Below are positions 1,315 to 56,553 of a DNA stretch of 64,000 nucleotides, one piece after another. The stretch covers positions 29,527 through 93,526 of the forward strand of contig JAFGDQ010000047.1 in the NCBI GenBank assembly GCA_016932015.1, in the 5' to 3' direction. A program made the position numbers and the translations under genes. The notes beneath the pieces were generated by a model. It ran no database searches. It was not told the DNA's origin and saw only the letters and a program-made list of their open reading frames with translations. Each line of letters begins with the position of its first letter. Within the stretch, counting starts at the first letter, position 1. This DNA comes from Spirochaetota bacterium. Lineage in GTDB: Bacteria > Spirochaetota > UBA4802 > JAFGDQ01.

Positions 1315-2976
1315 ATGTCAATTAAACTGATAATAATCGGAGGCGTAGCCGGCGGTGCTACTGCCGCAGCAAGGGCGCGGAGGCTTGATGAGAATGCTGA
1401 AATTATTCTCTTTGAAAGAGGGGAGTTCGTGTCTTTTGCCAATTGCGGTCTTCCGTATTATATCGGAAATATAATAAAGAACAGAGATGATCTGCTGGTT
1501 ACTACGGCACTGGATTTGAAAGACAGGTATAAAATTGATGTAAGGATATTCACTGAAGTAGTGTCAATTGACAGGGGAAAAAAGCAGGTCAGTGTAAAAG
1601 ATTTAAATTCAGGAAAAAGTTATACTGAGAATTATGATAAATTAATATTGTCTCCCGGAGCTGAGCCCGCAAAACCTAAAATCGACGGAATAGACAATGA
1701 GAACATATTCAGGCTAAGAGACATTCCTGATACCGACAGAATCAAAGCCCTGCTTGATGTTAAAAAGCCGGAATCCGCGGTTATTATAGGCGCGGGATTT
1801 ATAGGTCTTGAAATGGCGGAAAATCTTGTTGAGCGCGGAATAAAGACAACTGTAATTGAAATGCTTGATCAGTTTGTTCCTCAGGTTGATTATGAAATGG
1901 CTTCCATTGTGCAGATATTTCTTAAACAGAAGGGTGTTATATGCAAGGTTCAATGCCCGGCGAAATCCTTTGAAAAAAGAGGAGGCCGTACAGTTGTAGT
2001 CACAAGCACAGGAGAAGAGATTGAATGCGATATGGTTCTGATGTCTATCGGAGTAACGCCTGAAAATAAACTTGCGAAGGAATGCGGACTTGATACCGGC
2101 TCAAGAGGCGGCATAATTGTTGACGGATCAATGAAGACGTCGGATCCGGACATCTATGCTGTCGGAGACGCTGTTGAAGTTAAAAATTTTATCACTGGCA
2201 GGCCCGAAATGGTTCCTCTGGCAGGCCCTGCGAACAAGCAGGGACGCATTGCTGCTGACAATGCGCTGGGAAGAAGTTCTGTCTTTAAAGGAACACAGGG
2301 TACCGCAATACTAAAGGTATTTAAGCTTGTGGCCGCATCAACAGGGCTTAATGAAAAATCTCTTCAGAAGAACGATATTGCCTACCAGGCAAGCTATACG
2401 CATTCTCTGTCTCATGCTGGTTATTATCCTGATGCTGAACTGATGTCTGTTAAGATTCTTTTTAATCCGAATAACGGAAGGCTTCTGGGTGCGCAGATTG
2501 TAGGTTTTGACGGTGTTGACAAACGTATTGATGTGCTTGCAACAGCAGTAAGATCCGGCCTGTCTGTTTTTGACCTTGAAGAGTTGGAGCTCGCTTATAC
2601 GCCTCCGTTCTCGTCCGCGAAGGACCCTGTAAATGTTGCGGGATTTGTTGCTTCCAATATAATCAGGGCGGATGTTAAGTCCGTAACATGGAATGAGCTT
2701 AAAACGCTGAAAGGTAAAGTTTCATTTATTGACATGAGAGATGATATAGAACTGGAGATGAGCGGCACAATGAAAGGCGCGGTAAATATTCCGCTGAATG
2801 ACTTAAGAAGCAGTCTTGATGAGCTTGATAAAACGAAAACCTATGTTGCTTTCTGTGCCGCGGGATTAAGGTCATATATAGGCTGCAGAATCCTCATGCA
2901 GAAAGGGTTCAGGGTGCTTAATTTGAGCGGCGGATTTACAACCTATCAGTATGTAAAGCATATAGTTGAAAACTAA
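1315..2976 (+). CDS. CoA-disulfide reductase / NADH-dependent persulfide reductase-like flavoprotein with C-terminal rhodanese domain
   Basis: FAD GxGxxG (IIGGVAGGATAAARA), single redox Cys motif SFANCGLPYY, NAD fold VIIGAGFIGLEMAE. The C-terminal ~100 aa carry a rhodanese active-site loop FCAAGLRS. Confidence 0.8.
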   Translation: MSIKLIIIGGVAGGATAAARARRLDENAEIILFERGEFVSFANCGLPYYIGNIIKNRDDLLVTTALDLKDRYKIDVRIFTEVVSIDRGKKQVSVKDLNSGKSYTENYDKLILSPGAEPAKPKIDGIDNENIFRLRDIPDTDRIKALLDVKKPESAVIIGAGFIGLEMAENLVERGIKTTVIEMLDQFVPQVDYEMASIVQIFLKQKGVICKVQCPAKSFEKRGGRTVVVTSTGEEIECDMVLMSIGVTPENKLAKECGLDTGSRGGIIVDGSMKTSDPDIYAVGDAVEVKNFITGRPEMVPLAGPANKQGRIAADNALGRSSVFKGTQGTAILKVFKLVAASTGLNEKSLQKNDIAYQASYTHSLSHAGYYPDAELMSVKILFNPNNGRLLGAQIVGFDGVDKRIDVLATAVRSGLSVFDLEELELAYTPPFSSAKDPVNVAGFVASNIIRADVKSVTWNELKTLKGKVSFIDMRDDIELEMSGTMKGAVNIPLNDLRSSLDELDKTKTYVAFCAAGLRSYIGCRILMQKGFRVLNLSGGFTTYQYVKHIVEN

Positions 2977-8988: not shown

Positions 8989-10254
8989 ATGGAACTGGAA
9001 TATATTATATATCATATAATAGTGGCTTTTTTTATTTTATCATCTGCTATTTTTTCCGGATCGGAAACTTCGCTTACTTCAGCTAATTTTATAGCATTGA
9101 GGACTCTTTCTGAGAGCGGTATAAAGAGAGCAAAAAAATGCATGCTTCTGCTTGATAATATTGAAGAATCCCTCAGTATGATACTTATAGGTTACAATCT
9201 TGCTAATGTTGCAGCTACCTCGTTTATAGTCTTTCTGGCCACAAAAGCGTTCTTGCTGGATGACAACGGAGTTCTGATAGTTACCCTGGTTCAAATGTTT
9301 TTCTTTCTGGCTTTTTGCGAAATTTTTCCGAAAACGATAGCCAGGTCAAAGGCAGATTCGTTTCTTTTGTTTTTTGCCTATCCCTTGTCAGCTCTTTTAA
9401 TAATACTAAAACCTGCAGTTAAGCTGTCTCTGCTGTTTTCGAAAAAGCTAAAAAAGATCATGAATTATACGGACACGTCCGGTTTCCTGATAGGCTCAAG
9501 AGATGAAATCGGAACACTGTTTCAGCTGGGAGAAAAAGAGGGAATCATTGACGAAGACCACCAGGCTTTTGTGCTTGAAATTCTTTCTTTTAACGAAATA
9601 ACCGCAGAGGAAATTGCAACTCCGACAATTGATATGATTTCTGTGGAATTAAAGCAGAGTATCAGGAACCTTGTAAAAATAATAGAAAGCACCAGATTTT
9701 CCAGAATTCCGATACATGAGGAAAGAGTGGACAATATAGTAGGCTACATTCATTACAGGGACATTCTCAGGAATAGAAAAATAAAGAAAATTGAAGAGAT
9801 TATGAAGAAGCCTTTCTTCGTTCCTTCAACAAAGAGAATTTATGAGCTTTTCCTGGAAATGCAGGAAAACAATGAGCCTCTTGTTTTTGTTGTCAATGAA
9901 TTCGGCGCCGTAGAAGGCCTTATCTCGTATGAAGATATTATCGAAGAGATTGTCGGAGAAATACAGACACGCGATCATCCGGAGGAAATACTGATCAGGA
10001 AAGTCAACAGTACAAGATATATTCTTGATGGCGGACTTGATGTTGATTATTTCAACAGAAAGTTCGGGCTTTCAATTAATAAAAAAGGCTTTTCCACGAT
10101 TGCAGGCCTTGTTACCTATAAGCTGGCAAAAATACCCAAAAAAGGCGACAGCTTTACTCTGGATAATTATACTTTTACAGTAAATGAAGTCACTGACAGA
10201 TCGGTTGAGAAGGTAGCCGTGGAATTATCGGGAAAGGGGAAAAAGAAAAAATAA
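8989..10254 (+). CDS. second CNNM/HlyC-CorC family protein (tandem paralogue)
   Basis: Same architecture as the preceding gene (SGSETSLTS, CBS region, STIAGLVTYKLAKIPKKGD). Separated from it by 11 nt. Confidence 0.8.
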   Translation: MELEYIIYHIIVAFFILSSAIFSGSETSLTSANFIALRTLSESGIKRAKKCMLLLDNIEESLSMILIGYNLANVAATSFIVFLATKAFLLDDNGVLIVTLVQMFFFLAFCEIFPKTIARSKADSFLLFFAYPLSALLIILKPAVKLSLLFSKKLKKIMNYTDTSGFLIGSRDEIGTLFQLGEKEGIIDEDHQAFVLEILSFNEITAEEIATPTIDMISVELKQSIRNLVKIIESTRFSRIPIHEERVDNIVGYIHYRDILRNRKIKKIEEIMKKPFFVPSTKRIYELFLEMQENNEPLVFVVNEFGAVEGLISYEDIIEEIVGEIQTRDHPEEILIRKVNSTRYILDGGLDVDYFNRKFGLSINKKGFSTIAGLVTYKLAKIPKKGDSFTLDNYTFTVNEVTDRSVEKVAVELSGKGKKKK

Positions 10255-35132: not shown

Positions 35133-35762
35133 ATGCCGGATCCTGCAGTATTAAAAGCAAAAGTCGATGAATTAGGCGCAAGAAAATGGGATGACAAAGG
35201 CCTTGAAGAAAGAATGAGAAAGCTTATGAAGGATGACATCCCCAGAAAGACACTTGATCCTGCCTACATGAAAGCTCATAAAGCTGAAATTTTAGATCAT
35301 GTTGAATTATTAGCTGAGGAATATAACTACTATCTTAAAAATTGCGCGCAGGGAACTGCCCTGGCTCTATTTGAAGAGTTCGGAATAGGAAATATGCAGA
35401 CTATCAAAGCCTTAACTCCGTTTCCGGGTGTGGGGGGAACAGGGGATATGTGCGGAGGCATTACCGGCTCACTGATGGCTCTAGGACTTTTCTTCGGAAC
35501 TGACGACAGGACTAAACCGGAACTCACTGACCCGGTTATTAAATTATCACAGAAATTAATGGCTAAATTTGAAGGAAAACTCGGTTATATGTACTGTGCT
35601 GATATTATTGAGAATATTATTCTTGGATATGCAATCAATCCGGGTGAAAGTGATCAGGCAATGATACAGTTCGGTCATGACCAGGGTTTTGAGAAATGCG
35701 GTCTTCCTCCTGGAACAGGTGCAAGAATTGCTGCTGAATTTATTATAGACAGTATGGAATAA
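35133..35762 (+). CDS. C_GCAxxG_C_C family putative redox protein
   Basis: NCAQGTALAL (GCAxxG-like) followed by DMCGGITGSLMALG and later conserved Cys residues. RBS AAGGAGG. Confidence 0.6.
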   Translation: MPDPAVLKAKVDELGARKWDDKGLEERMRKLMKDDIPRKTLDPAYMKAHKAEILDHVELLAEEYNYYLKNCAQGTALALFEEFGIGNMQTIKALTPFPGVGGTGDMCGGITGSLMALGLFFGTDDRTKPELTDPVIKLSQKLMAKFEGKLGYMYCADIIENIILGYAINPGESDQAMIQFGHDQGFEKCGLPPGTGARIAAEFIIDSME

Positions 35763-35846
35763 CATTAAACAAATATCCTTCAATATTTCCTCCTTTGGAG
35801 TTAATCGTTTTTTCATATTTACTAAGCTAATTAAAAAAATATTTTT

Positions 35847-35890
35847 ATTGTGGATTTTCTGGTCAAAGAAGAAATCCACAATATTTTAAT
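35847..35890 (+). terminator. terminator-like hairpin between the C_GCAxxG gene and the CCG iron-sulfur gene
   Basis: ATTGTGGATTT (35847-35857) pairs with AAATCCACAAT (35872-35882), followed by ATTTTAAT. Confidence 0.45.
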
Positions 35891-36067
35891 ATATCATATG
35901 CCGTGGTAAAAAGTGATATTTTTAAACATGAAGATATTTTTTTCAATACCAGACAGGCCTCAATAAAAGATAATTGTTCTCAGGGATATGCTGCAATAAT
36001 ATTGTTATACTTGTCTCTGTGTTGCATTAATTTTAATTTATCAAGCTAATTATTAAAGGGAAAAAGC

Positions 36068-37435
36068 ATGGATAAGAAACGAAAATATCCATATTTCATA
36101 GAAAATCCGCTGGAGCATGACAGAGTCAGGCGCTTTCTTGATATTTTTTCAGCGATTCTTGAGACTTCCAATTACCGGTATATTCTGGATTTATATTCCA
36201 GGGTTACCATGAAATGTTCAAGATGCGCATCTGAATGCCAGATCTATCAGGCAACCAATGATCCAAAGGATATTCCATGTCACCGGACTAGCATACTTTT
36301 AAAAATTTATAAAAGGCATTTCACATTAGGAGGCTGGCTAAAGGCTAAATTTACAGGCGGAAGCGGGTTAACAGAAAAAGATATTGATGAAATGCTTGAG
36401 TCGTACTGGAACTGTACAGGATGCGGCCGCTGCGTATTATACTGTCCCCTGGGGATTGACCATAGAATAATCTTAAGGCTCGGCAGATATATACTGAGTG
36501 AAATGGGCATAGTCCCCAAAAATCTTCTTGTTTCGACCAGGGAACAGCTTCAGGGTGAGACTCATAACAGTTCTAAAGTTCCTCTGAAAGCGCTTCAGAA
36601 TACGGTTGAATTTCTTGAAGAGGAAATCGAGGAAATAAAAGGCGTAAAGGTCAAATACCCGATTGATGTATATGATGCTGAGTACATTTTTTTTACTCCG
36701 GTTAGCGACTACCTTGTTGAACCGGATACTCTTATGGGGATAGCCTGTGTACTGCATGAGGCGAACATAAGCTGGACTATCGGAGGAACGAACTGTGATG
36801 GCGTTAATTACGGCTTATTTTACAGTGACAGTATTCTCGGAGATGTAAACCGCAGCCTTATTAGTGAACTCAGGAGATTAAGGGCGAAAAAGATTCTTAT
36901 AGGTGAATGCGGCCATGCGTACAGGGCAATCAAGGATTTTCTGCCAACTTATAATGACGGAGAGAAAATAGAGGTTGTAAGCATAATGGAGCTTACACTG
37001 CAGCTTATTGAGGAAGGAAAGATTCAACTCGATAAAAATGTTATCAAGGAGAAGATTACATATCACGATCCGTGCAATATCGTCCGTCAAAACAGGGGAA
37101 TTGAGGAGCCGCGTAAAATAATCAGGAGCTTTATAAATGATTTTGTCGAGCTGAAATCTCACGGGCAGTACGGCCTGTGCTGCGGCGGAGGCGGTGGAAC
37201 TGTTGCGGTTGATGAGACAAATCCTTACAGAATGAATGTCGCCGGTAAAATGAAAGCTGAAGAGATAAAGGCTTCCGGAGCAGATATTATAATAACTCCG
37301 TGTGCAAACTGTAAAAAGCAGATTGGAGAATTGATACAGTTCAATAAACTTCCTATGAGGCATGCCGGCTTGCATGATCTTATTTTTGAAGCAATCATAA
37401 TGAAAGACGGAAAAAAACATGGCACAGATGATTGA
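36068..37435 (+). CDS. HdrD/DsrK/TmcB-family iron-sulfur oxidoreductase (2x[4Fe-4S] + two CCG domains)
   Basis: CSRCASEC and CTGCGRCVLYCP cluster motifs; CCG-type motifs ECGHAYR, YHDPCNIVR, GLCCGGGGG, TPCANCKKQ. Confidence 0.75.
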   Translation: MDKKRKYPYFIENPLEHDRVRRFLDIFSAILETSNYRYILDLYSRVTMKCSRCASECQIYQATNDPKDIPCHRTSILLKIYKRHFTLGGWLKAKFTGGSGLTEKDIDEMLESYWNCTGCGRCVLYCPLGIDHRIILRLGRYILSEMGIVPKNLLVSTREQLQGETHNSSKVPLKALQNTVEFLEEEIEEIKGVKVKYPIDVYDAEYIFFTPVSDYLVEPDTLMGIACVLHEANISWTIGGTNCDGVNYGLFYSDSILGDVNRSLISELRRLRAKKILIGECGHAYRAIKDFLPTYNDGEKIEVVSIMELTLQLIEEGKIQLDKNVIKEKITYHDPCNIVRQNRGIEEPRKIIRSFINDFVELKSHGQYGLCCGGGGGTVAVDETNPYRMNVAGKMKAEEIKASGADIIITPCANCKKQIGELIQFNKLPMRHAGLHDLIFEAIIMKDGKKHGTDD

Positions 37436-38123
37436 TTTCTTTATGAAACCATTTTTTATATTCTCGGTATCGGTAATGATACTGGGCTTATTGCGTTTGT
37501 TTATTAAGACAATTATAGAGATCAGACGCGTAATTAAAACTGCTGGAGATAAAGATTTTAAATATACCAAAATTTTTATGGCAACTTTAAGCTGGATCAT
37601 ACCCGGGAAGAACACTGTAAATACTGCTGTTGTCTACAGTATTGTTTCTTTTGTTTTCCATATAGGCCTTATTCTTGTTCCGGTTTTTTTAATGGAGCAT
37701 ATTATTATCTGGAAAGGGGCATTCGGATTCGGATGGCCTGCTTTAGGCAAACAGGCTGCGGATGTTTTAACTGTTATTACGATTCTTTCAGGGATAATAC
37801 TACTGGGATACAGACTCTTTTCAAAACAGAGAAGAAAATTAAGCTCAGTACATGATTATTTATTCTTGATACTTATTCTTGTAATTTTTATCAGCGGGTA
37901 TTTTTTACCGAAAACTTACAGTCCTTTTAATGTTCAGGTTAATATGCTGATACATATTGTCTGCGGGAATTTAATACTGATAATACTGCCGTTTACAAGA
38001 CTCGCTCATTGTATATTGTATCCGTTATTGAGGCTGGCTTCCGCGGTTGCCTGGCATTTTCCTCCAAATGCGGGTAAAGAGCTGAACAAGCTATTGTATG
38101 GTGAGGAGAATAAAAAAATATGA
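37419..38123 (+). CDS. NarI/DsrM-like integral membrane (putative di-haem b) subunit
   Basis: 5-6 TM helices with intramembrane His (FVFHIG, MEHIII, LIHIVCG, RLAHCI). Overlaps both neighbouring genes. Confidence 0.6.
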   Translation: MAQMIDFFMKPFFIFSVSVMILGLLRLFIKTIIEIRRVIKTAGDKDFKYTKIFMATLSWIIPGKNTVNTAVVYSIVSFVFHIGLILVPVFLMEHIIIWKGAFGFGWPALGKQAADVLTVITILSGIILLGYRLFSKQRRKLSSVHDYLFLILILVIFISGYFLPKTYSPFNVQVNMLIHIVCGNLILIILPFTRLAHCILYPLLRLASAVAWHFPPNAGKELNKLLYGEENKKI

Positions 38124-38761
38124 CAAATAACAATAATACTAATGAAAATTCAGTTGAACAGCATGAATATACTCCGTCTTTAAAGAATCAGCTTGGCGGA
38201 AAGAAATATCTTGTTATTGCAGTTATTTCTCTTATTGTAATTATTATAGTTTCTTTGATTTTTGCCGCTTTATCAGATTCCTTCAGAATAACGGCAGAAC
38301 CTGTTAAAGATGCCCTTGGCTGGGATGTGCTGAGAATTGACGGAAACAGGAACGGAAAGTATGTTGACTTTGATCATGAGGCTCATAAAAGCATTGCAGG
38401 TGAAGGCAGAGAAAGCTGTGCGGCCTGTCATCATTTAAGCAAACCGTATGACGGGCCTTCTTCATGTTATCAGTGCCATATGGATATGAATAAATCCGTA
38501 TCCATTTTTGATCATGATTATCATATCAGGCTGAACATAAAAAACGATTCATGCCGGGCATGTCATACAACAAATAAGGAGTCCGTGCAGGATGTTGTAT
38601 CCTGCAGCAGCTGTCATAAAGATTATGATAAAGATGTAAAGTATTATCTCAAAGTCCGGAGTTACAGGGAAGCTATGCATACACAATGCATAGGATGCCA
38701 CAAACAGGAGGACGAGTCTTTGGGAGAGTGTGCTGTATGTCACGGATCCGGAGAGAATTAA
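38120..38761 (+). CDS. membrane-anchored multihaem cytochrome c (six CxxCH), cytochrome c3-like
   Basis: N-terminal TM helix; CAACH, CYQCH, CRACH, CSSCH, CIGCH, CAVCH; FDHEAH and FDHDYH distal-His spacers. Confidence 0.85.
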   Translation: MTNNNNTNENSVEQHEYTPSLKNQLGGKKYLVIAVISLIVIIIVSLIFAALSDSFRITAEPVKDALGWDVLRIDGNRNGKYVDFDHEAHKSIAGEGRESCAACHHLSKPYDGPSSCYQCHMDMNKSVSIFDHDYHIRLNIKNDSCRACHTTNKESVQDVVSCSSCHKDYDKDVKYYLKVRSYREAMHTQCIGCHKQEDESLGECAVCHGSGEN

Positions 38762-38772
38762 ATCAATTATCC

Positions 38773-38801
38773 CGGATCGATTAATTCAGGATCCGTTTTT
38801 T
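38773..38801 (+). terminator. weak terminator/attenuator-like hairpin between the cytochrome and dsrC
   Basis: CGGATC (38773-38778) pairs with GATCCG (38890-38895 minus 100, i.e. 38790-38795), followed by TTTTTT at 38796-38801. Confidence 0.35.
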
Positions 38802-38891
38802 ATATATGTAATAATATTTAATATTATTTGTAAAATAATGCCGGAAAAAAGTATCGCATTATTAATAAATGAAAGTTTTAGGAGGATTATT

Positions 38892-39209
38892 ATGGCACAG
38901 ATAGAAATGGCAGGTGTAACTCTGGAAGTAGATGAAAACGGTTTTATGCAGGATACTGACAAATGGACAGAGGATATTGCAAAAGCATATGCCGAAAAAG
39001 AAGGCGTTACTGAACTGACAGAGGATCATATGAAAGGAATTCTTTATCTTAGAAATTACTATCTTGAATACGGTATCTGCCCTATGATCAGAAAGCTGAT
39101 CAAGGAAACAGGTTTTAATCTGAGCAGACTGTATGAGCTGTATCCTGACGGACCAGCTAACTCAGCCTGTAAATGGGCAGGAGTTCCGAAGCCTACAGGA
39201 TGTGTATAG
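38892..39209 (+). CDS. dsrC: DsrC-type sulfur relay protein (DsrC/TusE family, both C-terminal cysteines present)
   Basis: Start reset to the ATG at 38892, behind AGGAGGA. The C-terminus LYELYPDGPANSACKWAGVPKPTGCV carries the Cx10C arm. Confidence 0.85.
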   Translation: MAQIEMAGVTLEVDENGFMQDTDKWTEDIAKAYAEKEGVTELTEDHMKGILYLRNYYLEYGICPMIRKLIKETGFNLSRLYELYPDGPANSACKWAGVPKPTGCV

Positions 39210-39219
39210 ATACTGGTTT

Positions 39220-39500
39220 CATTTATACAGAATCATTTCAGAACAAGGGCTTTTATATCGCAACAGCCTTTGTTCTGAATATTCCTTCACTGTTTTCCCC
39301 TTAAAAAGCAGTTGTAACACCTTAATTACTGTTATAGATATTTATCCGTTTGTTTATATTCTTCATCAAATCAAAACCAATTAATATAAAATCATTTTTA
39401 GTTACATGTTCCCGCAAAGCAGAAATAAATGAATTGAAGTTTTCAGGATTCATCTTTGCGATACTGGAGGCTGGAAATTGCCGCGGGGTAAAGCGGTATC
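39220..39500 (-). pseudogene. decayed fragment of an EgtD-like (Methyltransf_33) SAM-dependent methyltransferase
   Basis: The minus strand reads FPASSIAKMNPENFNSFISALREHVTKNDFILIGFDLMKNINKRINIYNSN*GVTTAF*GENSEGIF. It is gap-free collinear with the remembered family pattern FLGSTIGN...LLLGxDLxK...AYxDxxGVTAxFNxN. In-frame stops at 39322-39324 and 39301-39303. Both gene ends are missing. Confidence 0.45.
39237..39279 (+). terminator. long hairpin downstream of dsrC (terminator candidate without a clean U-run)
   Basis: TTCAGAACAAGGGCT (39237-39251) pairs with AGCCTTTGTTCTGAA (39265-39279), 15 bp including one G-U. Confidence 0.4.
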
Positions 39501-39580: not shown

Positions 39581-39982
39581 TTAATCGCAGAATGATTTTA
39601 GTGATTTTGTAACGTCCGGAAATTTTTTTAGCAGCTGTTTATCTGAAGTTATTAATGGAATTTGCAAACCTATTGCAGTTGAAACAAATTCACAGTCATA
39701 AGCTGAACAGTTGCTTTCATTAGCAAGTTTAAGTACAGCTGAAGAAGAAACTTTGTATTCTCTTTCTTTTAATAATTCAAGAGCATTATTCATAATTTGA
39801 TTTGCCTGACTTAATAGAAGGATCTTTTTCCGTAAATAAAGGCTCAAAACATTACGAAGTTCACTGCGCCAGAGTAAAGGAGCATACCATTCATTATCCT
39901 TTATAAATGCTTGTTCTGAAAGTTGTGATTGTTCACTGGACAGAAACAGGTAGCCAATTACATTTGTATCTACAACTATCAT
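39581..39982 (-). CDS. vapC: PIN-domain toxin VapC
   Basis: MIVVDTNVIGYLF N-terminus and the remaining PIN acidic positions. 133 aa. 4-nt overlap with the upstream antitoxin. Confidence 0.8.
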   Translation of the reverse strand: MIVVDTNVIGYLFLSSEQSQLSEQAFIKDNEWYAPLLWRSELRNVLSLYLRKKILLLSQANQIMNNALELLKEREYKVSSSAVLKLANESNCSAYDCEFVSTAIGLQIPLITSDKQLLKKFPDVTKSLKSFCD

Positions 39983-40221
39983 AAACGCCCTTCGGTTTTA
40001 GCATGATTAAAAGAATCATCATTGATTGGATGTTCTACTGTCAGTTTTCGAAGTTGACTGGCATTCTCAATCAGTTCATTAGAATTAAGACGGTGGCATG
40101 CTACGCTGTTTTCAATGCATTTAATAATTTCACTATTAATAGAACGCAGATTCATTTCTGCACTTTCTTTCAGGCGTTTATAAAGATTGTCCGGAATATT
40201 TTTAACTGTTATTGTTGCCAT
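39979..40221 (-). CDS. vapB: ribbon-helix-helix antitoxin (VapB/FitA-like)
   Basis: Start reset to the ATG at 40221. MATITVKNIPDNLYKRLKESAEMNLRSINSEIIKCIE is a typical RHH N-terminus. Confidence 0.6.
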   Translation of the reverse strand: MATITVKNIPDNLYKRLKESAEMNLRSINSEIIKCIENSVACHRLNSNELIENASQLRKLTVEHPINDDSFNHAKTEGRL

Positions 40222-40390
40222 GAGAATCATTCCTTTTGGTTTCATTCTGGTATAAAAATACAACCATTGAATAATAATCGTCAAGTTAAAATAAATGATT
40301 TTTAATATCTATCAGAAAAATACAAATTAATTCTGGATATAATATGTAATTTATCCATCCAAATAAAATTCTATTAATTCTAAATTATTG

Positions 40391-45561: not shown

Positions 45562-48500
45562 ATGCAAGTCGGAATAGATGCAGGAGCTAAATTTTTAAAA
45601 ATCGTTTACAGGGAAGGCAGCGGCAGTATAATCCCCTATGCCTATTGCCAGCATTTCGGGAATCCGGAAAAAGAATTTTTGCGTTTAATCAGTGAAATAA
45701 ATGACCGGAATATTGAAAGGACGGTTTTCACCGGACTTCATGCAGAGCACCTTGCCGGAGTCTGCAGAGATGCTGAAACTGTTGATGAGATTTCGGCAAT
45801 GATCGAGACTATAGGATATCTGAATATAGGCTGTAAATATATAATAAACGTAGGAGCCGGTTCAATAAAGCTGATTGAGCTTGATAACGGTCGTTTTGCC
45901 TCCTATTCTGAAAATACACTTTGTGCTGCGGGTACAGGTTCTTTCCTTGATGAGCAGATGAACAGAATGAGCTTCACATACCCGGAGCTTGCAGGCCTGC
46001 CCTTTATTGATAATCCTCCTGATATTGCGACCAGGTGTGCTGTTTTTGCCAAATCCGATCTGATTCACAGGCAGCAGGAAGGCTATAGCAGGGAGGAGAT
46101 GTGGGCCGGATTATGCAGAGGTGTTGTTGCAACCATGTTTCAGTCCGTATTCAAAGGAGATATCCCGCCAGACACTATAATGTTCAGCGGCGGTCTTTTC
46201 CTGAATCCAATTATCCGTAAATGGGTTGAAAAGATTACCGGGAATCCGGTTTTTAATGATAACGGGCATTTCTTTTCCGCAATCGGAACCCTTATTGCTG
46301 AAGGCAAAGAAAAGAAATATGTATTATCTGCAAATAATGATTCAGCTGACAGCAGGAAGAAATTACAAATACTTGATCCCCCGAGTACTTCACAGCCGGA
46401 ACTGAAATTAGTTAAAGAGTATTTATCTGATGGGAATGAAGTAAGAATTCATAAAGACATTAATGACAGCCTGCATGCTGCAATGGGTATTGATATAGGT
46501 TCAACAAGTACAAAACTTGTAATAATTGATACATCAACGAAAGATGTTGTTATAGATATTTACCGCAGGACAGAAGGAAATCCGGTTGAGGCTGTAAAGC
46601 TGCTCTTTACTGAATTGAGAGAAATAATTAAAGGCAGGGAAATGATTATTTCAGGTGCAGGAACAACCGGGTCAGGCAGGAAGCTTGTCGGAAAACTGAT
46701 AAACGCAGACGCCATTGTAAACGAGATTACAGCGCATTTTAAAGGGGCAACTTATTTTGACAGTTCAATAGAGACGATTTTTGAAATCGGAGGGCAGGAT
46801 TCAAAGTACATAAGAGGACAGAACGGTATTGTAGCTGACTGCAACATGAATTTTGTATGCGCGGCAGGAACCGGGTCTTTTATTGAAGAACAGGTTAACA
46901 GGCTCGGCTTTGACATAAAAGAGATCGGGGACATAGTGCTTGGATTAAGGACACCGCATACATCGGACAGATGTACTGTGTTCATGGAGCAGGATATTAA
47001 TAAATTACTGAGAGACGGCTTTTCCAGAGAGGAGGTGCTTGCAGGAGTCATCAGGTCAATTGCTAAAAATTATCTTAACCGCGTTGTTGGCACCAGGCCT
47101 GTTACCGGAGACAGAATATTTTTTCAGGGAGCAACAGCAAGAAACAAAGGCCTTGTTGCAGCATTTGAGGCCATTACAGGAAAGCAGATTATGATATCTC
47201 CTTATTGTCATGTTATGGGAGCTTTCGGTGCAGCTCTTATTTCAACAGGCAAAACGGAGAACAAAAAGTCGAAATTCAGAGGACTTAATGTTCTTGAACA
47301 GAGAATTGAACTTGAATACAGCAAATGCGACAAGTGCTCCAACATGTGCAGAATTACCACTGCAAGGCTTGCTGACGGAGTCAGTGAGTCGTGGGGATTC
47401 ATGTGCGGTAAGGAAACTATTGAAGAGAACAGATATAATAAATCTACGGATTATTTTGCCAGAATGTCAGGTTTACTGAAAAAGCATATGAAACACGCGG
47501 GCAGAACAGTTCTTGTCAGCAAAAAGAATAAAAAGCAAATACCCGGGAAAATCGGCATTCCGCTTGTTTTGTCCATGTATAATCATATTCCTCTGTGGAA
47601 GACTTTTCTTGAGAAGCTCGGCTTTGAAGTGATTCTTTCGAACAGGTCTGATTCACAACTAAAGAAAAAGGCAATCAGTGTATCAAAAGCTGAATTCTGT
47701 TTTCCAATGAAACTTAGTCTTGCTCATTACAGGGAAATAACTGAAAATTCTGATATTGATATGATATTTTTTCCTACAACGCTGAGCGAGGCCAAACAGA
47801 AAAATAATATGCCCCGAATGCTTTGTCCGTATGTTATTTCATATCCTTCAGTTGCTAAAGAGACTCTGGGCGTAGACTGCAGAATTATTTCTCCGAGTAT
47901 TGATTTCAGACAAAAAAGAGAAGTTATCATAAAAGAATTGCATGAAAGATTTTTCGAATTCGGTTTTACCGAATATCAGATTGCAAAAGCGTATAGCACA
48001 GGACTGAAACAGCAGAGTGATTTTTTGAAAAGCAGATACAGTTACGGGCAGAAGCTTCTTAAAGAGCTGAAGGAAAAGAATGAAAAGGCAGTAATCTGCC
48101 TTGGTAGGCCGTATAATCTTTATGACAAGATTCTTAACCTCGGGCTTACGGAAAGGCTGCGTATAAATGATATAACGGTCTTTCCTTATGAATATCTTAT
48201 TGATCCTGATGAAAATGACCCTGATATTCCTCATATGTACTGGAATTACGGTGAGAAAATCCTGTCAGTTGCCGGGAAGATAAAAAAGTATGAAAATATT
48301 TATCATGTATATTTTACGAACTTTTCCTGCGGGCCTGACTCATTCATTCTAAGCAGGTTTGAAGAAATAATGCGGGGCAGGCCGTATCTGATTATTGAAC
48401 TGGATGAACACGGATCAGAAACAGGATATTTAACACGAATTGAAGCTTTTATGGATGTAATCAATGAGGATAAAAAATCAACCAGGATAGAGAAATCAAA

Positions 48501-49710
48501 GGGAAAGATTTTTGAGAAAGCATGGAAGAAAAGTGAGCGGAAAATATGGATCCCGCCGATGTTTGAGATTGCACCCAGATTATTTGCTGCTGCTTTCCGG
48601 GGTTACGGAATTGATGCTGAAGCACTTGAGATTGAGGACAATGAAGCCTTTGAATACGGGAAACGGAATACAAGGGGAAGTGAATGCCTTCCGGCCTGCA
48701 CCACAATAGGCGGATTTCTCAGGAAGATGAAGGAGATTGACGCTGATCCGTCAAGACACGCATTGTTTATGCCGACAGCGGAGGGACCGTGCAGATTCGG
48801 ACAGTATTCCACTCTGCATAAAAGTATTCTTAACAAGAACGGAATGGGGGCTGCCGAGATTTTTTCCCCGACTTCAACGAATTCCTACATGGGTATGCCG
48901 GGAGCGCTGACCCGATATTTACTTGATGTGATAACGGCAAGCGATCTTCTTTCAAAGCGGGTGTACAGTACAAGGCCGTATGAAGTAAATAAAGGAGAGA
49001 CTGATACTGTCATAGAGGAATTGATTTCCGGTGCTGAGACTGAGATTGAAAACAGGAGCGATCTTGTTCCTGTTATTGAACGGGCGTTGAGAAGGCTGTC
49101 CGGAATACCGGTGCATAATGACAAGAAACCGCTGGTTGGAATTGTGGGGGAGATTTATGTAAGATCCAACCTGTTCTGCAATAACAATGTAGTACGCGCG
49201 ATTGAAAAGTGTGGAGGTGAAGCATGGCTTTCCCCTTTCTCTGAGTGGGTTGTTTATACAGCATGGATGGAAAGATATTTTAACAGAGTTAACAAACCGG
49301 GTCTGCTAAAAAGACTGGGTGTGAATATCAAGACAAGCTACATGATAAACAGGATGCATAATTTCGAACATTCATTAAAAGACTATCTGCCGGGCAGAAC
49401 AGAACCGCCTATTGAAAGGGTTCTTGAAGCAGGAAGCAGATATGTTCCTATTGAATTTGAAGGAGAAGTTATTCTGACTCTGGGAAGAACAATGGTTTTT
49501 CTCGAAGATGGAGCCAGCATGGTTGTGAACTGCGCGCCGTTCTGCTGTATGCCCGGGAATATTACAACCTCGATATTTCATAATCTTCAGAGAGAATACA
49601 ACAGGCCGATTATTAATTTATTCTATGACGGAGAAAGCGATGTTAATAGAATCATAGGTATCTATCTGAATAACATTGAAAAAGAAAAAATCGTTTATTC
49701 CGCTTTATAA
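45562..49710 (+). CDS. acyl-CoA dehydratase activase-related fusion protein (two BcrAD/BadFG ATPase domains + DUF2229/dehydratase-like region)
   Basis: Two actin-fold ATPase units (GIDAGAKFLKIV...CAAGTGSFL; GIDIGSTSTKLVII...CAAGTGSFI), a CDKCSNMC motif, then ~750 aa resembling 2-hydroxyacyl-CoA dehydratase-associated domains. Confidence 0.75.
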   Translation: MQVGIDAGAKFLKIVYREGSGSIIPYAYCQHFGNPEKEFLRLISEINDRNIERTVFTGLHAEHLAGVCRDAETVDEISAMIETIGYLNIGCKYIINVGAGSIKLIELDNGRFASYSENTLCAAGTGSFLDEQMNRMSFTYPELAGLPFIDNPPDIATRCAVFAKSDLIHRQQEGYSREEMWAGLCRGVVATMFQSVFKGDIPPDTIMFSGGLFLNPIIRKWVEKITGNPVFNDNGHFFSAIGTLIAEGKEKKYVLSANNDSADSRKKLQILDPPSTSQPELKLVKEYLSDGNEVRIHKDINDSLHAAMGIDIGSTSTKLVIIDTSTKDVVIDIYRRTEGNPVEAVKLLFTELREIIKGREMIISGAGTTGSGRKLVGKLINADAIVNEITAHFKGATYFDSSIETIFEIGGQDSKYIRGQNGIVADCNMNFVCAAGTGSFIEEQVNRLGFDIKEIGDIVLGLRTPHTSDRCTVFMEQDINKLLRDGFSREEVLAGVIRSIAKNYLNRVVGTRPVTGDRIFFQGATARNKGLVAAFEAITGKQIMISPYCHVMGAFGAALISTGKTENKKSKFRGLNVLEQRIELEYSKCDKCSNMCRITTARLADGVSESWGFMCGKETIEENRYNKSTDYFARMSGLLKKHMKHAGRTVLVSKKNKKQIPGKIGIPLVLSMYNHIPLWKTFLEKLGFEVILSNRSDSQLKKKAISVSKAEFCFPMKLSLAHYREITENSDIDMIFFPTTLSEAKQKNNMPRMLCPYVISYPSVAKETLGVDCRIISPSIDFRQKREVIIKELHERFFEFGFTEYQIAKAYSTGLKQQSDFLKSRYSYGQKLLKELKEKNEKAVICLGRPYNLYDKILNLGLTERLRINDITVFPYEYLIDPDENDPDIPHMYWNYGEKILSVAGKIKKYENIYHVYFTNFSCGPDSFILSRFEEIMRGRPYLIIELDEHGSETGYLTRIEAFMDVINEDKKSTRIEKSKGKIFEKAWKKSERKIWIPPMFEIAPRLFAAAFRGYGIDAEALEIEDNEAFEYGKRNTRGSECLPACTTIGGFLRKMKEIDADPSRHALFMPTAEGPCRFGQYSTLHKSILNKNGMGAAEIFSPTSTNSYMGMPGALTRYLLDVITASDLLSKRVYSTRPYEVNKGETDTVIEELISGAETEIENRSDLVPVIERALRRLSGIPVHNDKKPLVGIVGEIYVRSNLFCNNNVVRAIEKCGGEAWLSPFSEWVVYTAWMERYFNRVNKPGLLKRLGVNIKTSYMINRMHNFEHSLKDYLPGRTEPPIERVLEAGSRYVPIEFEGEVILTLGRTMVFLEDGASMVVNCAPFCCMPGNITTSIFHNLQREYNRPIINLFYDGESDVNRIIGIYLNNIEKEKIVYSAL

Positions 49711-55707: not shown

Positions 55708-56553
55708 ATGAGTCAGAAAATTTTCAGAAATATATTCAGATTAAAACAGATAATACTCTGTCTTTCTCTGGCATATACCGGGCTGTTGTTTTCAGGAGGG
55801 TCAGAGCTTTTAATATGGCTGCTGGTAACTGCTGGCGTTATATTTGCAAAAGCGGCTCATTTATGTTTTTACAAAATTATGGATATCAGGGGTATATATA
55901 AAAGCCCGAGATACAGGGAAAGGCTTATTGCTAAAGGACAGATGAAAAACGTCTCTTTGTGGTTATGCGCAATATTCGCTTCCGCGGTGTTTATTACCTC
56001 CTGTTTTTTTATCAGTCAGCTCTGCTATTATATTGCTATAGGTGCTGTTGCTGTAATGCTGTTTTTTCCATTGTTAAAAAGATACAGCAGCCTTCCCTAT
56101 TATTATATGGGAGTTTTTGAATCAGCATGTCCTGTTGCCGGATTTATAGCCGGTGAGAACAGATATGAACATATTGCACTTGTACTGGCTCTGTCTGTAT
56201 TCTTCTGGGTTATAGGACAGGAGATTTGCAGGGCGGGTTTTGAAATTGCGGAAGATACAGAGCAGAAATCTTTTTCAATACCGGCTCGTTTCGGGATAGA
56301 CAAAGCCAGGGTTTTTTCCATTTTTTTTTACCTGATTTCAATTGCGGGGTTTACCGCGGCCGGAATTATGAATAAACGCGGTTTAACGTACTGGATTTCG
56401 ATAATCTGTTTTCTGATAATCTTCATAAGGCAGGAAACCTTGTTAAAAGCCAAAGACCCTGAAACGGCGAAAATAGAATTCATTCAGATCAATAATTTTA
56501 TAGCACCGGTTATTTTTATAGGTACAATAATTGATGTCTTTTACGGAGTATAG
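55708..56553 (+). CDS. UbiA-like polytopic membrane protein (divergent motifs)
   Basis: 8-9 TM helices. AEDTEQKSFSIPARFG resembles the second Asp-rich UbiA motif. The first motif is degenerate. Confidence 0.35.
   Translation: MSQKIFRNIFRLKQIILCLSLAYTGLLFSGGSELLIWLLVTAGVIFAKAAHLCFYKIMDIRGIYKSPRYRERLIAKGQMKNVSLWLCAIFASAVFITSCFFISQLCYYIAIGAVAVMLFFPLLKRYSSLPYYYMGVFESACPVAGFIAGENRYEHIALVLALSVFFWVIGQEICRAGFEIAEDTEQKSFSIPARFGIDKARVFSIFFYLISIAGFTAAGIMNKRGLTYWISIICFLIIFIRQETLLKAKDPETAKIEFIQINNFIAPVIFIGTIIDVFYGV

Follow-up and report, generated by a model that had tools for sequence, protein, structure and literature searches.

The stretch of DNA analysed here (the window) spans 64 kb of a Spirochaetota genome, positions 29,527 to 93,526 of the forward strand of contig JAFGDQ010000047.1, and its subject is a cassette of five genes that ends with dsrC. 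The three central genes, the trio, encode an iron-sulfur protein of the DsrK family (K), a membrane cytochrome b (b) and a multihaem cytochrome c (c). All five open reading frames (ORFs) are intact, lie on the + strand and have the coordinates given by an earlier reading of this DNA (the original prediction), which had also noted that the three genes of the trio overlap; the family matches described below bear this layout out. The features of the cassette, with lengths in amino acids (aa) and transmembrane helices as TM, are these:

35133..35762, + strand: C_GCAxxG_C_C protein, 209 aa, with 4 Cys; first of the five cassette genes
35846..35883, + strand: stem-loop with an AU-rich tail, between the C_GCAxxG and K genes, found by RNA folding
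36068..37435, + strand: K, DsrK-family iron-sulfur protein, 455 aa, with Fer4_8 and CCG domains; predicted to be cytoplasmic and to be the catalytic subunit
37419..38123, + strand: b, TmcC/HmcE-type membrane cytochrome b of the NarI family, 234 aa, with ~5 TM helices and 4 invariant His
38120..38761, + strand: c, membrane-anchored periplasmic hexahaem cytochrome c of the c3 class, 213 aa, with 1 N-terminal TM helix and 6 CxxCH motifs
38773..38795, + strand: short GGAUCC stem with a U6 run, between the cytochrome gene and dsrC
38892..39209, + strand: DsrC, 105 aa, with both redox Cys of the C-terminal arm; predicted substrate of the complex

The genes of K and b overlap by 17 nucleotides (nt) and those of b and c by 4 nt, and these overlapping stop and start codons suggest that the three are co-translated. 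The outer two genes stand apart, the C_GCAxxG gene 305 nt before that of K and dsrC 130 nt after that of the cytochrome, and a hairpin had been predicted in each gap. Folding gives strong support to the hairpin at 35846-35883 (-15.4 kcal/mol, z -3.2; one shuffle in 200 did as well), a probable terminator or attenuator. The other, at 38773-38795, folds no better than shuffled sequence (-8.4 kcal/mol, z -0.6; 52 shuffles in 200 did as well) and would be a weak terminator at most. Neither was picked up by a consensus terminator scan. An AGGAGG ribosome-binding site lies upstream of the dsrC ATG at 38892. No dsrAB, dsrMKJOP, apr or sat genes lie within the 64 kb, as had been predicted for all of these except dsrMK.

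The K, b and c proteins and DsrC

The K protein carries a dicluster ferredoxin domain and a CCG domain (Pfam Fer4_8 37 bits, CCG 49.6 bits); it has no hydrophobic helix by hydropathy and is therefore predicted to be cytoplasmic. Among the NCBIfam models it scores highest with DsrK (293.7 bits, cut-off 400), followed by TmcB (198.5, cut-off 735) and HmcF (188.3, cut-off 750). The models of GlpC, GlcF and LutA type give 23-37 bits (GlpC 36.9 and 31.3, GlcF 23.5), and there are further weak matches to TfrB and LdhH. Expressed as E-values, the comparison is 2e-87 for DsrK vs 2e-9 for GlpC, so K does not belong with the GlpC/LutA enzymes, an assignment that would have removed the basis of the original prediction.

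Two [4Fe-4S] cysteine motifs (C50/53/57 and C116/119/122/126), C281 within a GECGH motif and one five-Cys CCG motif (C336/371/372/412/415) are found in K, and all 13 of these cysteines are invariant in an alignment of 123 family members. The likeness to DsrK, HdrD and TmcB and the two iron-sulfur motifs were thus rightly recognised at the outset, but one complete CCG motif with the single Cys281 takes the place of the two CCG motifs claimed. This is the pattern described for DsrK, TmcB and HmcF, each with one CCG motif and a conserved, probably catalytic Cys in T/GECGH (PMC10861901), and every motif that this work lists for DsrC-trisulfide reduction by DsrK (the GECGH Cys and the five-Cys CCG) is present and invariant in K.

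Family placement was examined with a neighbor-joining (NJ) tree of the 123-member alignment; the tree is distance-based, bootstrapped and unrooted. Reference proteins were obtained by scanning genomes with HmcA fragments from PDB alignments and verifying the neighbours by NCBIfam (HmcF 944 bits, TmcB 848-874, TmcC 335, DsrM 382, and DsrK 698, or 697.9 in locus L009; loci of other genomes are denoted by L and a number). The members fall into five groups: HmcF (58), MK-type DsrK, which is encoded after dsrC (31), JOP-type DsrK (14), TmcB (7) and the clade of the window protein (13). Each group has a bootstrap of 100/100, as has HmcF with TmcB. In this unrooted tree the window clade joins JOP-type DsrK in 96/100 replicates and TmcB in 0/100, and it never groups with TmcB or HmcF. 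By this placement K represents its own clade in the DsrK/TmcB/HmcF family, grouping with DsrK and not with TmcB/HmcF. All five groups share the two iron-sulfur motifs, the Cys of (G/T)ECGH and the five CCG cysteines; the last CCG position is Cys in the window clade, TmcB, HmcF and MK-type DsrK, and Asp in JOP-type DsrK. Cys71 of K is specific to the window clade. In the PDB, a sequence search returned no solved DsrK, TmcB or HmcF, the best match being an 'iron-sulfur-binding reductase' (9ojn_A, E 2.5e-18).

Homologues of K number in the thousands. The closest 120 are all at least 53% identical to it and come from metagenome-assembled genomes (MAGs) labelled Spirochaetota, Planctomycetota, Fibrobacteria, Chitinispirillia, Omnitrophica, Armatimonadetes, Anaerolineales/Chloroflexi, Zixibacteria and Deltaproteobacteria; the annotation of almost every one reads simply '(Fe-S)-binding protein'. 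The MK-type DsrK proteins form a clade of their own that also falls under the NCBIfam DsrK cut-off (341 vs 400). Their loci (L021, L033 and ~30 similar ones, for example L033 10483-13125) have the order dsrA-dsrB-dsrN-dsrC-dsrM-dsrK and belong to Syntrophorhabdus, Dehalococcoidia and 'delta proteobacterium' MAGs.

The b protein matches Pfam Nitrate_red_gam (PF02665, 24.9 bits, cut-off 22.9) and has ~5 hydrophobic helices. Among the NCBIfam models it matches TmcC (119.4 bits, cut-off 240) and HmcE (105.9, cut-off 275) and gives no match with DsrM. BLASTP agrees: verified TmcC/HmcE are matched at E-values of 1e-22 to 1e-28 and DsrM at 0.005-4; the NarI-like character claimed for the protein was correct, and its likeness to DsrM was not. 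His81, His94, His179 and His197 are invariant in all 20 sequences compared (16 clade members and 4 TmcC/HmcE references). We assign b as a NarI-family dihaem cytochrome b of the TmcC/HmcE kind, with the four His as predicted haem ligands. Only NarI was matched in the PDB (E 0.007).

The c protein is a Cytochrom_CIII member (PF02085, 55.1 bits, cut-off 22.9) with exactly six CxxCH motifs (C100, C116, C145, C162, C190 and C204) and one hydrophobic helix at residues 31-49, precisely the anchored six-haem cytochrome that had been described. Six further His in the haem domain are candidate distal ligands for bis-His ligation. All but one of 16 homologues retain the six CxxCH, and the N-terminal anchor is conserved. 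Its best PDB matches are HmcA domains, and its NCBIfam scores are 35 bits for TmcA (cut-off 114) and 41 for HmcA (cut-off 400). In other phyla the same hexahaem domain forms one polypeptide with an NrfD-like membrane protein, in agreement with a c that is tethered to the periplasmic face of the membrane.

The fifth gene encodes a DsrC (PF04358 113.5 bits, cut-off 24.9; TIGR03342 108.7, cut-off 53.5) that falls under the cut-off of the TusE equivalog (72.6 bits vs 191). Its C-terminal end, SACKWAGVPKPTGCV, holds Cys93 and Cys104, the penultimate of 105 residues, in the Cx10C spacing given by the original prediction. The arm (...PANSACKWAGVPKPTGCV) differs by one residue (V/L) from that of the DsrC encoded beside dsrAB in spirochaete loci.

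Comparison with known systems places the module outside each of them: the equivalog scores are low and the K clade is separate, the membrane partner is wrong for DsrMK, and the cytochrome is wrong and subunits are missing for Tmc and Hmc. Close to it in plan is Tmc (TmcABCD of Desulfovibrio and Desulfobacterota), in which a periplasmic c3-type cytochrome is likewise combined with a NarI-family dihaem TmcC and a cytoplasmic TmcB with one CCG and GECGH. The four haem-b His are conserved between the two, the B-C-A gene order is also that of Desulfobacterium autotrophicum (PMC2702500), and the catalytic Cys is shared with TmcB (PMC10861901). However, both K and b stay far below the TmcB and TmcC cut-offs, K outside the TmcB clade; TmcA is a soluble acidic tetrahaem protein whereas the cytochrome of the trio has six haems and its own anchor; the cassette has the C_GCAxxG_C_C gene and no Trp-rich TmcD-like gene; and the trio is found in phyla other than Desulfobacterota, Spirochaetota among them, with a physical link to dsr genes.

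Hmc (HmcABCDEF) shares the HmcE/HmcF-like pair of membrane and cytoplasmic subunits and the HmcA-like haem domain. It differs in that the window cassette has no HmcB, C or D-like genes, its cytochrome has six haems vs sixteen in HmcA, K lies outside the HmcF+TmcB clade, and the HmcF, HmcE and HmcA scores are all well under their cut-offs (188.3 vs 750, 105.9 vs 275 and 41 vs 400). With DsrMK(JOP), K shares the iron-sulfur, GECGH and CCG motifs and is nearest to DsrK by both model score and NJ tree; dsrC is next door, and in relatives the gene clusters are the same. Yet K is ~80 residues shorter than JOP-type DsrK, scores 294 against a cut-off of 400 that true DsrK passes with 698, and ends its CCG motif with Cys where the JOP type has Asp; its membrane partner is not DsrM, and a hexahaem c stands in place of DsrJ, O and P. 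HdrED of methanogens, a NarI-type cytochrome b with a CCG iron-sulfur subunit, presents the ancestral two-subunit plan, but HdrD has two complete CCG motifs (PMC10861901) vs one in K, there is no cytochrome c, and the substrate is CoM-S-S-CoB. The predicted three-subunit complex is accordingly best described as a mosaic, with a catalytic subunit from the DsrK side, a cytochrome b from the Tmc/Hmc side and a self-anchored c3-type cytochrome c; the word hybrid, used for it in the original prediction, is a fair one.

The trio among dsr genes of related bacteria

The arrangement found in the window (K, b and anchored hexahaem c, architecture i) occurs mainly in Spirochaetota, with one locus (L003) from a MAG labelled Planctomycetota, and a survey of gene order finds the three-gene core conserved in relatives. 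In at least seven distinct Spirochaetota loci (L009/L010/L012, L014, L018, L290, L004/L287, L006/L278 and L092) the trio begins at or just after the dsrP stop codon, following a complete (dsrT)-dsrMKJOP and adjoining dsrAB, dsrC and dsrN; in L006 and L287 it lies between dsrP and dsrA. In L094 and L331/L332 about 3.5 kb lie between the trio and dsrMK and dsrJOP genes of divergent orientation. The trio is detached in L002 and L007, and dsrAB-dsrC-dsrN are found on further contigs of those two MAGs (L050 and L031). The predicted tie of a transmembrane DsrK/NarI-family/multihaem-c module to DsrC is strengthened by the dsr clusters in which the same three genes are embedded. What these loci contradict is the proposal that the module replaces DsrJOP: in all relatives outside the host clade with a readable neighbourhood, a complete dsrMKJOP either directly precedes the trio or lies within a few kb of it. 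Since both DsrMKJOP and the trio are encoded within a single cluster in relatives, we regard the trio most readily as an additional route by which electrons reach DsrC.

A second form of the module, architecture ii, consists of K, b, a Fer4_11 protein and an NrfD protein fused to the same hexahaem domain. It resembles a condensed Hmc, mirroring HmcB, HmcC and HmcA, and was seen in Fibrobacteria, Armatimonadetes, Anaerolineales and Omnitrophica MAGs and on one 1.6 Mb contig. In an Anaerolineales MAG (L249 1094-9965) the architecture ii module is preceded by a Psr/Phs-like molybdopterin oxidoreductase with Fer4_11 and NrfD subunits, and also by a DsrE-like protein, a small ferredoxin and a DsrN-like CbiA amidase; this neighbourhood is sulfur-related, with no dsrAB in the 21 kb seen.

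In the searchable literature we found no description of the trio or of the module. Of two large dsr surveys, one does not treat Tmc/Hmc (PMC10591310) and the other uses them only as decoys to exclude (PMC10504309). The trio is probably an accessory of the known dsr pathway, previously undescribed, and not a stand-alone oddity.

The nearest relatives of the window cassette are L001, L005 and L167 (84%, 82% and 79% identity, within a range of 75-84% for the closest relatives), and L005 is also close in tetranucleotide usage (r 0.94). All four have the arrangement C_GCAxxG - K - b - c. The dsrC gene follows the trio directly in the window, L001 and L005; the L167 contig ends within the cytochrome gene. 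The flanking genes differ among the four loci, which argues that the five genes move as a unit. Ratios of nonsynonymous to synonymous substitution (dN/dS), for the genes with computable dS and with dS saturated, are ~0.03 in dsrC and lie in the range 0.08-0.14 in the genes of b and c; values of at most 0.14 indicate that the cassette is maintained by purifying selection in the host clade. In L001 the K-like gene is split at 9098-9100 into two reading frames (residues 1-366 and 367-455), through a long-read assembly indel or as a pseudogene; the other four L001 cassette genes are intact.

The first gene of the cassette matches Pfam PF09719 (66 bits) and TIGR01909 (55.5 bits). A C_GCAxxG gene stands directly upstream of the trio also in L001 (87% identity), L005 (73%) and L167, and no function for the C_GCAxxG_C_C protein was found in the searchable literature. 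Just upstream of it, L005 (5450-6211) and L167 (1083-1844) each have a 253-aa ORF, on opposite strands relative to the cassette; that of L005 is a DUF169 protein and that of L167 has no Pfam family on record. Neither the window nor L001 has such an ORF at that position.

Electron supply to DsrC and alternative explanations

Tmc and Hmc have long been proposed, in the Desulfovibrio literature, to feed periplasmic electrons to DsrC, which is not known to have been shown directly. The trio very probably is a DsrC-trisulfide reductase, to judge from its motifs and gene company. For the cassette as a whole, we see about an even chance that its products are a transmembrane redox complex of three subunits, similar in kind to Tmc, Hmc and DsrMK, and the DsrC on which this complex acts, and that it serves as an accessory second route beside DsrMKJOP in a spirochaete that reduces sulfite by means of DsrAB. 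Electrons would enter on the periplasmic side via the membrane-tethered hexahaem cytochrome c or, alternatively, be drawn from menaquinol at the b subunit. The two haems b of the TmcC/HmcE-like subunit would carry them across the membrane, and they would then pass the two [4Fe-4S] clusters of the cytoplasmic DsrK-family subunit. At the end of the path, a non-cubane CCG cluster and Cys281 would convert the DsrC trisulfide (Cys93-S-Cys104, made by DsrAB) to free DsrC and sulfide. This route to DsrC would work alongside that of DsrMKJOP, whose role as menaquinol:DsrC-trisulfide oxidoreductase has been demonstrated with menadiol (PMC10861901). In the host lineage, the trio would have left the dsr cluster with a dsrC copy and the C_GCAxxG_C_C gene, dsrAB and dsrMKJOP being located elsewhere in the genome.

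Three observations weigh against this accessory role. The K subunit is under every NCBIfam equivalog cut-off. The window and L092, the next lineage out, are 70% identical in K and 63% in DsrC, whereas dsr-linked loci among themselves are 67% identical in K and 75% in DsrC; the host-clade DsrC is thus more diverged than its K partner would lead one to expect, which would fit an additional dsrC gene with a specialised role, a paralogue, or a change of partner. Finally, dsrAB is absent from the 64 kb, and two scans of GTDB species genomes with spirochaete DsrA queries did not find dsrA in the two MAGs closest to the window (CAVZMS01, of L001, and CAZVYR01, of L005) among the best 80 of 317-470 matches, both bins consisting of short contigs. 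The same scans recovered dsrA from five of five other trio-bearing Spirochaetota MAGs. A canonical dsrABMKJOP elsewhere in the genome, which by the original prediction would reduce the module to a routine paralogue, was found in the more distant relatives and, within those best 80 of 317-470 matches, not in the two closest; this is weak evidence and not proof of absence. L092 itself (K 70% identical) has a complete dsr cluster with the trio. On balance, the chance that dsrAB is present elsewhere in the host genome appears roughly even to slightly better.

A spirochaete-type dsrAB pair was also found at L253 7998-10247 (JGI contig Ga0209475_10000014, 812 kb, 34% GC content), between TRAP-transporter and acyl-CoA synthetase genes and with no dsrC, dsrN or dsrMKJOP within 8 kb. 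As a dsr locus of the host clade it was rejected, with a tetranucleotide correlation to the window of r 0.48 (L005: 0.94).

These same data give room, at a distinctly lower probability, to an explanation in which the complex and its chemistry are the same but the host lineage is without DsrAB, and the five genes form a portable, self-sufficient, DsrAB-independent module of sulfur-reducing respiration. DsrC would then receive its sulfane sulfur by another route, for example from a rhodanese or persulfide carrier, from the adjacent C_GCAxxG_C_C protein or through thiosulfate or polysulfide chemistry. Such a module would account for five genes that travel together between different flanks, for the C_GCAxxG_C_C gene added in this clade only, and for a DsrC that has diverged faster than K and is still under strong purifying selection. 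It would also account for dsrA not being recovered from the two closest MAGs (best 80 of 317-470 matches) by scans that were positive in all five others. Genes for a CoA-disulfide reductase (CoADR) fused to rhodanese are present in the window (1315-2976) and directly after the L092 trio, and assemblies with DsrMK and no identified DsrAB have been noted (PMC10504309). However, the absence rests on incomplete short-contig MAGs and on the best 80 of 317-470 matches, every other trio carrier that could be checked has dsrAB, and the CoADR-rhodanese gene of the window is 32 kb from the cassette and 37% identical to that of L092. Also counted against this explanation is that we know of no DsrAB-independent source of DsrC trisulfide.

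It is improbable that the complex runs in the outward direction, passing electrons from reduced DsrC or cytoplasmic thiols through the hexahaem cytochrome to periplasmic or extracellular acceptors in sulfur oxidation or disproportionation. A multihaem cytochrome chain is reversible in principle, Spirochaetota MAGs with reductive or oxidative Dsr gene sets have been reported by Diao et al. (PMC10591310), and no Pfam DsrD match is recorded in the dsr loci inspected. Nevertheless, spirochaete DsrA is 65-73% identical to the DsrA of reductive-type lineages (Syntrophorhabdus, Dehalococcoidia and Desulfobacterota MAGs), and no dsrEFH or dsrL was seen in the inspected loci; the Cys at the last CCG position of K, shared with TmcB, HmcF and MK-type DsrK in place of Asp, points the same way and is not decisive on direction. 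That the CCG protein acts on some other disulfide or substrate, by chemistry like that of GlpC, LutA or HdrD, with the adjacent dsrC a coincidence, is very improbable: the CCG domain family is functionally broad and K does match TfrB, LdhH and GlpC weakly, but DsrK leads GlpC by a wide margin of E-value, the signature of GECGH with a single CCG is specific to DsrK, TmcB and HmcF, and adjacency to dsr genes recurs in more than 10 loci of distinct lineages.

For the long-standing proposal that Tmc and Hmc deliver periplasmic electrons to DsrC, a complex of this architecture beside dsrC, and between dsrMKJOP and dsrAB in relatives, is among the clearest genomic links of such a complex to the DsrC cycle. 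Its K proteins belong to an unnamed clade of the DsrK family, spread over many phyla with recently discovered dsr genes and, under the generic annotation that present equivalog models give it, uncounted in surveys of sulfur metabolism. The two forms of the clade, one with the anchored hexahaem c and the other with an iron-sulfur protein and the NrfD-hexahaem fusion, offer testable material on how electrons are supplied to DsrC in non-classical sulfite reducers. Should the host lineage prove to be without dsrAB, this would suggest that the two-cysteine DsrC of the cassette acts independently of DsrAB, in a trisulfide or persulfide cycle.

Other genes of the window

The CoADR-rhodanese-like gene at 1315-2976 is present as originally described, encoding a CoA-disulfide-reductase-like flavoprotein with a C-terminal rhodanese domain (TIGR03385 495 bits vs a cut-off of 579). 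The same architecture recurs in L092 (12092-13786), where the gene comes immediately behind the trio, and in Ca. Formimonas warabiya (L074 9042-10787), where it lies within the dsr cluster. With 37% identity to the L092 gene, the window gene is not its orthologue and was rejected as a part of the system; a functional link to the trio is suggestive at most.

The other genes are of housekeeping or flagellar kind (methylmalonyl-CoA carboxyltransferase, FlgN/K/L, FliS/W, a penicillin-binding protein (PBP), a release factor and purine genes), together with a DUF1577 protein, of a Leptospira paralogous family; the host is a Leptospira-like spirochaete. Directly downstream of dsrC, between the cassette and flgN-flgK-flgL, lies a gene for a PIN-domain (VapC-like) toxin (39581-40284, - strand), which overlaps a small upstream ORF and forms with it a VapBC-type toxin-antitoxin pair. 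A 1382-aa fusion at 45562-49710 combines two BcrAD/BadFG-type ATPase (acyl-CoA dehydratase activase) domains with DUF2229; fusions of this type are typical of strict anaerobes, consistent with an anaerobic Leptospira-like host. The UbiA-family prenyltransferase at 55708-56553 has its best specific matches with MqnP (menaquinone, futalosine route), at ~110 bits and far under the cut-offs, and would bear on the question of whether the host could offer a quinone pool to the b subunit.

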